64,000 bases of DNA, from positions 13,293 through 77,292 of the IMG/VR virus record IMGVR_UViG_3300027313_000002. The stretch is one strand, 5' to 3'. Shown here one piece after another: positions 60,459 to 60,650 of the stretch. Numbering within the stretch: position 1 is the stretch's first letter; every line of letters starts with the position of its first letter. This DNA is from a virus. The notes under the pieces are model-generated. The model was not told the origin of the DNA. It did not search any database and saw only the letters and a program-made list of their open reading frames with translations. Position numbers and translations under genes: made by a program.

Positions 60459-60650
60459 ATGACCGCGACCGCTCTCCGACGCATCCTCATCCGGAACCGC
60501 GTGCTGCTACTCGCCATCAGCTTCCTGCTCGCCACGATCGCCGTCGTGCTCGCAGTCGCCGCGGTGCGGACCGGCACGTCATCCGGCGCCAGCGGGCAGT
60601 TCTTCTACCACGGATCCGCGGCCACCCCGCTGTTCTTCTACCACGGCTGA
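60459..60650 (+). CDS. 63-aa exported peptide precursor with two FFYHG repeats
   Basis: AGGAGG RBS; basic N-region and hydrophobic helix; ends GQFFYHGSAATPLFFYHG. Confidence 0.75.
   Translation: MTATALRRILIRNRVLLLAISFLLATIAVVLAVAAVRTGTSSGASGQFFYHGSAATPLFFYHG

Follow-up and report, generated by a model that had tools for sequence, protein, structure and literature searches.

The gene described here is a 63-aa open reading frame at positions 60459-60650 (plus strand; ATG at 60459, TGA at 60648-60650) of the window, by which we mean the whole stretch of 64,000 nucleotides of viral DNA that was analysed. It lies antisense within an array of 35-36 tRNA genes and one RNase P RNA (58999-63908, from tRNA and Rfam scans) in which all the tRNAs are encoded on the minus strand. 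On the promoter side it is flanked by tRNA-Glu(ctc) (60195-60269, minus strand) and at its stop by tRNA-Arg(tct) (60651-60724, minus strand), whose 3' end, at 60651, follows the stop codon without a gap. The window represents the final 64 kb of an IMG/VR viral contig of 77,292 b, rated ~53% complete by CheckV, and its GC content is 66-77%. A tailed-phage structural module is found on the minus strand, with a Mu-like portal (55683-57284, minus strand), a head protease, a decoration protein and a tape-measure-sized ORF of 2516 aa. The closest isolate by portal is Microbacterium phage Magritte (49.8% identical) and the source phage is therefore an uncultured soil actinophage. A portal search for relatives gave 47 viral loci and 34 metagenome loci (numbered with the prefix L below), several of which are genomes of 143-152 kb rated 97-100% complete. 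The order of tRNA genes in the array is kept across these relatives; an exact-pattern search for further arrays of the clade was unproductive, the tRNA sequences being too divergent. Tyrosine integrases and large serine recombinases (Phage_integrase, Recombinase) gave no match in the contig or in four relatives rated 97-100% complete, so the clade looks virulent, with no evident lysis-lysogeny decision to regulate, and the source is apparently a virulent soil actinophage of ~150 kb. DNA of the ORF region is present in 24 soil metagenome runs from 2016-2018. The ORF sequence is identical in the four soil DNA runs compared, hence there is no population dN/dS signal on selection, and no RNA run is listed among those that carry it.

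The product of the ORF (MTATALRRILIRNRVLLLAISFLLATIAVVLAVAAVRTGTSSGASGQFFYHGSAATPLFFYHG) starts with a basic N-terminus (RRILIRNR), continues with a 22-residue hydrophobic helix and ends in a 27-aa tail with two copies of FFYHG (SGASGQ-FFYHG-SAATPL-FFYHG-stop). The coordinates, the translation and this layout with tandem FFYHG cores are as first described in an earlier note made from the sequence alone, and the antisense position inside the tRNA array was also correctly recognised there. The description of the N-terminus as signal-peptide-like holds only in part: the basic start and the hydrophobic segment are present, but at 22 residues the hydrophobic stretch (V15-V36; best 19-residue Kyte-Doolittle mean of 3.01) resembles, as far as its length can tell, a membrane anchor more than a cleaved signal peptide. 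Possible signal peptidase sites can be read from the sequence at AVA/A and SGA/S (cut at the slash). The product is probably, from these features, a membrane-anchored or exported peptide.

The tail is encoded mostly by two tandem units of 33 nt (60581-60613 and 60614-60646, plus strand), which were found in a repeat search, code for SGASGQFFYHG and SAATPLFFYHG and are identical at 27 of 33 positions (82%). An exact 14-mer, TTCTTCTACCACGG, is found twice within them, at 60600-60613 and 60633-60646, with a chance expectation of ~3e-4 for such a repeat in 381 nt. The two copies of the FFYHG core differ by a single synonymous change (GGA/GGC), whereas the linkers of the two units differ at 6 nt, every one of which changes an amino acid. 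The contrast between core and linker divergence in this one gene (1/15 nt versus 6/18 nt, hypergeometric p ~0.07) is only suggestive. The duplicated FFYHG pentapeptide appears to be the selected unit.

Signals for expression are found at the expected places. The strong ribosome-binding site pointed out in the earlier note is a Shine-Dalgarno sequence AGGAGGG at 60443-60449 (plus strand), which can be read directly 10 nt before the ATG. A predicted sigma-70-type promoter, TAGACA-N18-TACGGT (60398-60427, plus strand), lies 31 nt upstream of the ATG and was identified with a pattern derived from the clade. An alignment of upstream regions of conserved antisense genes in the Asp/Val spacer of relatives (see below) revealed a common promoter, TTGACN or TAGACA followed after 16-18 nt by (G)TACCGT, and the pattern used for the scan, T[AT]GACN-N16-18-TAC[CG]GT, was defined on those genes independently of the FFYHG ORF. 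It has one match on both strands of the 64-kb window (128 kb), upstream of the FFYHG ORF, against 0.13 matches per window in shuffled sequence. Among ten unique matches in 0.79 Mb of related loci, six precede Asp/Val genes, one precedes the ORF of L031 discussed below, and two lead in the sense direction into tRNA arrays (L022, L044). Transcription is predicted to start near 60434, with a leader of ~25 nt that contains the Shine-Dalgarno sequence, and such a start excludes the alternative GTG at 60426. A generic promoter and terminator scan of 60000-61000 returned nothing, because its -10 rule demands a TATAAT-like box. The antisense strand of tRNA-Arg(tct) would be the only candidate terminator for the ORF transcript.

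Two kinds of symmetrical elements were noticed around these promoters. An inverted repeat, GTAACCGCCTG / CAGGCGGTAAC, with 11-nt arms (60364-60374 and 60405-60415) separated by 30 nt, spans 60364-60415; its right arm sits in the promoter spacer, and the repeat may represent an operator or an RNA hairpin. In the promoters of the clade, a palindrome TTGAC-N4-GTCAA(G) overlaps the -35 box. It is seen at L022 1445 (plus strand), at L044 801 (plus strand) and in the Asp/Val promoters of L002, L022, L030 and L044, that is, ahead of tRNA arrays as well as of the antisense Asp/Val gene, and a dimeric regulator may use it as its operator.

The base composition of the ORF points in the same direction as the expression signals. 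GC at codon positions 1/2/3 is 0.61/0.53/0.89, following the pattern of confirmed genes of this phage such as the tape-measure ORF (0.65/0.52/0.95), and GC1 is higher than GC2, a property by which true frames can be told from the many antisense 'shadow' frames of the window. In the 189 nt upstream, GC3 in the same frame is ~0.60 (derived from the whole-spacer value of 0.748), so the periodicity ends at the ORF boundary. Frames on the opposite strand at the ORF either contain stops or run through two tRNA-Glu genes. A search for structured RNA in the spacer (60270-60650) gave no Rfam match at E <= 1, and the spacer shows no excess folding over shuffled sequence on either strand (z = -0.41 and -0.19). 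By its promoter, Shine-Dalgarno sequence and codon periodicity, ORF 60459-60650 is very probably a real, expressed gene.

Fifteen relatives have the Arg(tct)/Glu(ctc) pair, and in 13 of them the spacer between the two genes measures only 3-87 nt; it is 180 nt long in L072 and 297 nt in L031. Since it is short in nearly all of them, the ORF lies in a lineage-specific insertion of 381 nt, which in the window fills the entire spacer (60270-60650). The spacer of L072 was considered as a further case and rejected, as its hydrophobic antisense frame runs through tRNA-Arg without a stop. The insert had no match in a blastn search of phage records. The 63-aa peptide found only itself in a word-seeded search of 5.8 billion clusters, in an exhaustive phmmer search of 1.84 billion representative proteins and in tblastn against the 47 related loci; no homologue was detected in scans of viral, metagenome and genome contigs or in a six-frame search of five complete or near-complete relatives, and PHROGs gave no match. 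A look-alike search in the ESM Atlas stayed at chance level (0.80-0.83). The identical protein is present on 30 contigs from JGI, ENA and Logan, one of which is 117 kb long. In the literature, a search for FFYHG returned only 'AffyHG' strings, and no relevant paper was found on small membrane genes lying antisense in phage tRNA arrays.

L031, a 5.6-kb contig with a portal 82% identical to that of the window phage, is the sole other case of a large insert in the Arg/Glu spacer holding a bounded ORF. Its 297-nt insert carries a 53-aa antisense ORF (1325-1486, minus strand), with the product MHNPATHLYGAPQTHLYGLQHSAVTPAFTLLLLVAVLITIAGLAIWRLRKTPA, which contains one membrane helix and two copies of THLYG. 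The ORF is preceded by a promoter of the clade type, TTGACC-N18-TACCGT, and by a Shine-Dalgarno sequence GGGAGA 8 nt ahead of the ATG, and its stop is 3 nt from tRNA-Arg. The two THLYG copies (ACG CAC CTT TAC GGT and ACG CAT CTC TAC GGC) differ by three synonymous and no non-synonymous changes, and the flanks differ in amino acids. The window and L031 products thus have a common design of one helix and two identical aromatic/His-rich pentapeptides that end in Gly. The order of the domains is reversed: arginines are N-terminal in the window ORF and C-terminal in L031, where the repeats are N-terminal to the helix and there is no N-terminal signal peptide. By the positive-inside rule alone, the repeats of both products are predicted to face outwards.

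This resemblance is one of architecture and we do not claim homology of the two inserts. At the DNA level their local alignment scored no better than shuffles (101/300), the peptides have no significant protein similarity, and an element shared upstream of the -35 box (TGCA..AGTAGTCAC) reaches p ~0.08 only. The L031 peptide is also an orphan in protein databases. For the four changes in the FFYHG and THLYG cores, the estimated probability that random changes would all be synonymous is ~0.002, a value inflated by how the repeats were noticed, and we therefore regard the synonymous-only core differences across both genes as supportive only. A six-frame survey of clade DNA (~0.95 Mb) gave 4168 unique small ORFs, 42 of which were membrane-like with coding-like composition. 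A repeat of at least 4 residues outside the helix was found in 2 of these 42, namely the window and L031 ORFs, in the same spacer and the same orientation. The evidence from analogues consists of this single case.

The FFYHG gene is not the only antisense gene in these arrays. A scan of all spacers of at least 150 nt in the relatives turned up a conserved family of small membrane proteins whose genes lie antisense between Asp(gtc) and Val(gac) in at least 17 related loci, or between Ser(cga) and Val(gac) where the array is reduced, as in L017. Examples are L047 6926-7117, L017 5021-5152 and L044 6912-7052, all on the minus strand. Members consist of one helix followed by G-x-R-x-G...E-x-x-E-R-x-R-R, recognise each other in tblastn down to E 1e-14 and have no match in Pfam or PHROG. 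Their stops abut the 3' end of tRNA-Asp, and the genes are leaderless, with the -10 box ~7 nt before a GTG. The window contains a broken copy at 59740-59874 (plus strand), which aligns with relatives in tblastn at E values as low as 1e-7. It is interrupted by an in-frame TAG at 59794-59796, its promoter is degenerate and it is probably a pseudogene. Read-through of the TAG was considered and rejected: the codon is an ordinary stop in this phage, used by 23 of 53 confident genes, and the tRNA scan gave none with a CUA anticodon. ARAGORN mistook this broken ORF for a plus-strand 'tRNA-Ala' (59734-59830). No sequence similarity between the FFYHG peptide and the Asp/Val family was detected by tblastn, and the family alignment contains no common motif with it.

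The spacers hold further elements. Larger antisense genes of 135-181 aa are found in other spacers at L017 3767-4174, L009 3861-4406 and L047 4185-4655 (all minus strand), each of them lineage-specific and lacking a PHROG match, and that of L017, with 135 aa, carries a classical signal peptide. Several relatives have in common a small ORF with the motif RW..YG.WGC in the spacer between Lys(ttt) and Arg(tct) (L009 6394-6540, L024 6525-6680, L072 3012-3194, plus strand), encoded on the tRNA strand, hence the arrays hold protein genes in both orientations. The RNase P RNA of the window is a full-length type A bacterial molecule (61957-62284, minus strand; 263.7 bits, E 6e-86) with tRNA-Thr(ggt) and tRNA-Gly(gcc) as its neighbours. 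Scans of the arrays of six relatives gave no RNase P match, so it looks lineage-specific; of the corresponding spacers, that of L044 is 747 nt long and contains protein ORFs, and those of L009, L022 and L045 measure 1-11 nt. In the Ser(gct)/Ser(cga) spacer, a 57-aa frame rich in Cys (CKPCH...CKQC; 61245-61418, minus strand) resembles by eye a remnant of an HNH endonuclease. Contigs from two soil runs join 61151 to 61501 via a 35-nt repeat, omitting tRNA-Ser(cga) and the spacer (61152-61500); this could reflect a structural variant or else a collapse in the assembly. In L024, a 79-nt tRNA at 7023-7101 (plus strand), called SeC(tca) by ARAGORN, takes the place of the second tRNA-Met(cat) and is possibly a UGA-reading tRNA.

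What could be the role of a membrane peptide with a twin tail then? Some Phr precursors contain their mature peptide twice, and the earlier note had read the gene as a candidate communication peptide of an actinophage. The gene itself, its membrane-targeted or exported product and the duplicated pentapeptide as the putative selected unit stand from that interpretation, but the communication role is not supported. Five criteria are common to RRNPP systems, among them a receptor gene directly next to the propeptide gene and a TPR receptor of 250-500 aa, and the propeptide leaves the cell through Sec and is then processed to a short peptide; quorum sensing by such peptides has been described in Bacillota rather than in Actinomycetota (PMC10075063). 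The 63-aa ORF falls within the RRNPP size range and its product may be secreted, uncertain as this is with an anchor-like hydrophobic stretch, but both of its neighbours are tRNA genes, Glu(ctc) and Arg(tct). At E <= 0.1, neither TPR_12 nor TPR_8 matched anything on the 77-kb contig (~53% of the genome), with positive controls, in agreement with the earlier remark that no TPR receptor was visible, and the only HTH_3 match lies in a 190-aa frame ~37 kb from the ORF. Arbitrium belongs to temperate phages and the integrases and recombinases searched for above were missing both from the contig and from the four relatives rated 97-100% complete. On these findings, with no receptor in the 77 kb available, we reject membership in arbitrium/RRNPP. 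The orphan status of the peptide, its absence from close relatives and an L031 analogue without an N-terminal signal peptide also speak against communication.

For a multicore RiPP, the surroundings are similarly empty. No protein gene adjoins the ORF, and the earlier remark that no maturase was visible is borne out by the absence of any P450, radical SAM or cyclase next to the gene. The only candidate modifier is a haem peroxidase (An_peroxidase domain match, 47615-49384, minus strand) ~11 kb away between head genes, with a twin-arginine signal SRRTLLR. It was absent from five near-complete relatives and so represents another lineage-specific acquisition; to have it act on exported Tyr/His peptides is, from one co-occurrence, speculation.

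We favour an envelope-directed role over three other explanations. The tail could be cut by extracellular proteases to release two FFYHG peptides (THLYG in L031), acting as a Phr/AimP-like signal or a multicore RiPP. This would account for cores that are identical and linkers that have diverged in two unrelated genes, as expected if the core is the product, and for related phages carrying a different peptide at the same locus, like communication 'codes'; the size is that of an RRNPP propeptide, export is plausible, and the Tat-type peroxidase, lineage-specific like the ORF, offers one possible modifier. We nevertheless consider release unlikely, given that neither an adjacent receptor nor, in 77 kb, any TPR protein was found, the lone HTH_3 being ~37 kb off, that the clade has no integrase or recombinase and hence no lysogeny switch, that the 22-residue stretch is anchor-like with no P450, radical SAM or cyclase alongside, and that the L031 repeats precede the anchor without an N-terminal signal. 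RRNPP-type sensing is also described for Bacillota and not for Actinomycetota (PMC10075063). A more specific version, to which we give less credence still, is that the Arg/Glu spacer serves as a docking site for interchangeable cassettes of membrane-delivered twin-pentapeptide precursors, whose phage-specific aromatic-His-Gly pentapeptides (FFYHG, or THLYG in L031) would act, once set free outside the cell, as signals or as envelope-active ligands. If true, it would mean peptide signalling or interference in virulent actinophages without an RRNPP-type receptor.

The gene could also encode a small membrane toxin or a lysis-timing protein, type I toxin-like or holin/antiholin-like, with an mRNA complementary over its full length to the tRNA-array precursor and silenced by heavy tRNA transcription. 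A product of less than 70 aa with a single strongly hydrophobic helix fits this, and so does a gene wholly overlapped by an opposing tRNA operon; the upstream array promoter of relatives is of the same class, so that both strands could be transcribed together; the Asp/Val antisense protein, a helix with a basic tail, is built as many type I toxins are. Such a function, however, leaves selection for two identical extracytoplasmic pentapeptides unexplained, no dedicated antitoxin RNA, terminator structure or excess folding was found at the locus, and a gene missing from nearly all relatives is no part of a core lysis module; we regard this explanation as improbable. That the ORF is without function, either a chance frame in a GC-rich spacer or the 5' remnant of a captured gene with a repeat made by slippage when the insert was acquired, agrees with its orphan status, with the frequency of long ORFs in DNA of 66-70% GC, with the position of the duplication at the very edge of the insertion, with the gene relics in other spacers (the HNH-like frame at 61245-61418 and the broken Asp/Val gene) and with the absence of RNA runs among those listed as carrying it. 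It is at odds with a codon periodicity limited to the ORF, a strong Shine-Dalgarno sequence and a unique promoter match at the correct spacing, an independent analogue in L031 with the same architecture in the same spacer, and a sequence unchanged across the soil runs compared (2016-2018), and we find it rather improbable.

Our preferred reading, held with moderate confidence, is that the FFYHG gene is a lineage-specific accessory gene for a tandem peptide displayed at the envelope, with an envelope-directed role. A self-contained cassette of promoter, Shine-Dalgarno sequence and ORF would have been inserted antisense into the Arg(tct)/Glu(ctc) spacer. Host RNA polymerase would start at the TTGACA/TAnnnT-type promoter, ~25 nt upstream of the ATG, and the 63-aa product would enter the host membrane with its arginine-rich N-terminus inside. 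The 27-residue tail would then lie on the outer side, where it would stay anchored or be cut free by signal peptidase at AVA/A or SGA/S, displaying two identical FFYHG units on a flexible Gly/Ser/Ala/Thr/Pro linker, with the pentapeptide as the functional unit. FFYHG would most likely bind or block a component of the host envelope or a membrane or wall enzyme, although the target is a guess, and possible uses would be the exclusion of competing phages or envelope remodelling. The product does not look like a diffusible quorum signal, and the gene belongs to the fast-turnover antisense accessory genes of the clade's tRNA array.

Small phage membrane proteins are numerous and roles are known for almost none of them. 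Here, two unrelated genes at one point of the array, with the same promoter type and the same design, lead to a testable hypothesis of a five-residue functional unit. If the motif is released, it would be a first hint of peptide signalling in actinophages, and if it is tethered, a minimal model of a phage that decorates or blocks the envelope of its host. The spacers of tRNA arrays in this clade are active sites of gene gain and loss with conserved antisense promoters of their own. This is relevant to the annotation of such arrays, in which small antisense genes routinely go unnoticed or are miscalled, as with the false tRNA-Ala at 59734-59830 (plus strand).

How does the FFYHG gene compare with known systems? 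With AimP, Phr and other RRNPP peptides of Bacillota and their phages it shares a small ORF (10-100 aa), an N-terminal hydrophobic segment, a short peptide at the C-terminus and a peptide sequence that varies between related elements, but its host is actinobacterial, its hydrophobic segment is of anchor length, it has no sequence similarity to them and its L031 analogue has the reverse domain order without a signal peptide. P450 biarylitides of actinobacteria are RiPPs with a Tyr-x-His core, and the short repeated aromatic/His core and the actinobacterial setting recall multicore or aromatic-crosslinked RiPP precursors; a leader and maturase pair is missing, however, a membrane helix is present and the core is FFYHG, not Y-x-H. 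The type I toxins Hok, Fst and TxpA are also small membrane proteins, similar in size, in the single helix and in the overlap with an abundant antisense transcript (here, by position, the tRNA operon), and they differ in having a dedicated antitoxin sRNA and in lacking the predicted extracytoplasmic tail with its putatively selected repeats.

The closest parallels are found in the arrays themselves. Like the Asp/Val family, the FFYHG gene is antisense in the array, has its stop at a tRNA 3' end and a promoter of the TWGACN-N16-18-TACSGT class, and encodes one membrane helix in a product of less than 65 aa. The family, in contrast, is clade-wide and leaderless, with a cytoplasm-type basic tail (ER-RR) and no repeats, whereas the FFYHG gene is lineage-specific, with a leader carrying a Shine-Dalgarno sequence and an aromatic repeat tail. 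With antisense accessory genes in phage tRNA arrays in general it has in common that these are small, fast-changing, lineage-specific genes docked at tRNA ends. What is different here is that two unrelated inserts in one spacer have in common a helix and a tandem pentapeptide, and this shared architecture goes beyond simple mosaicism.
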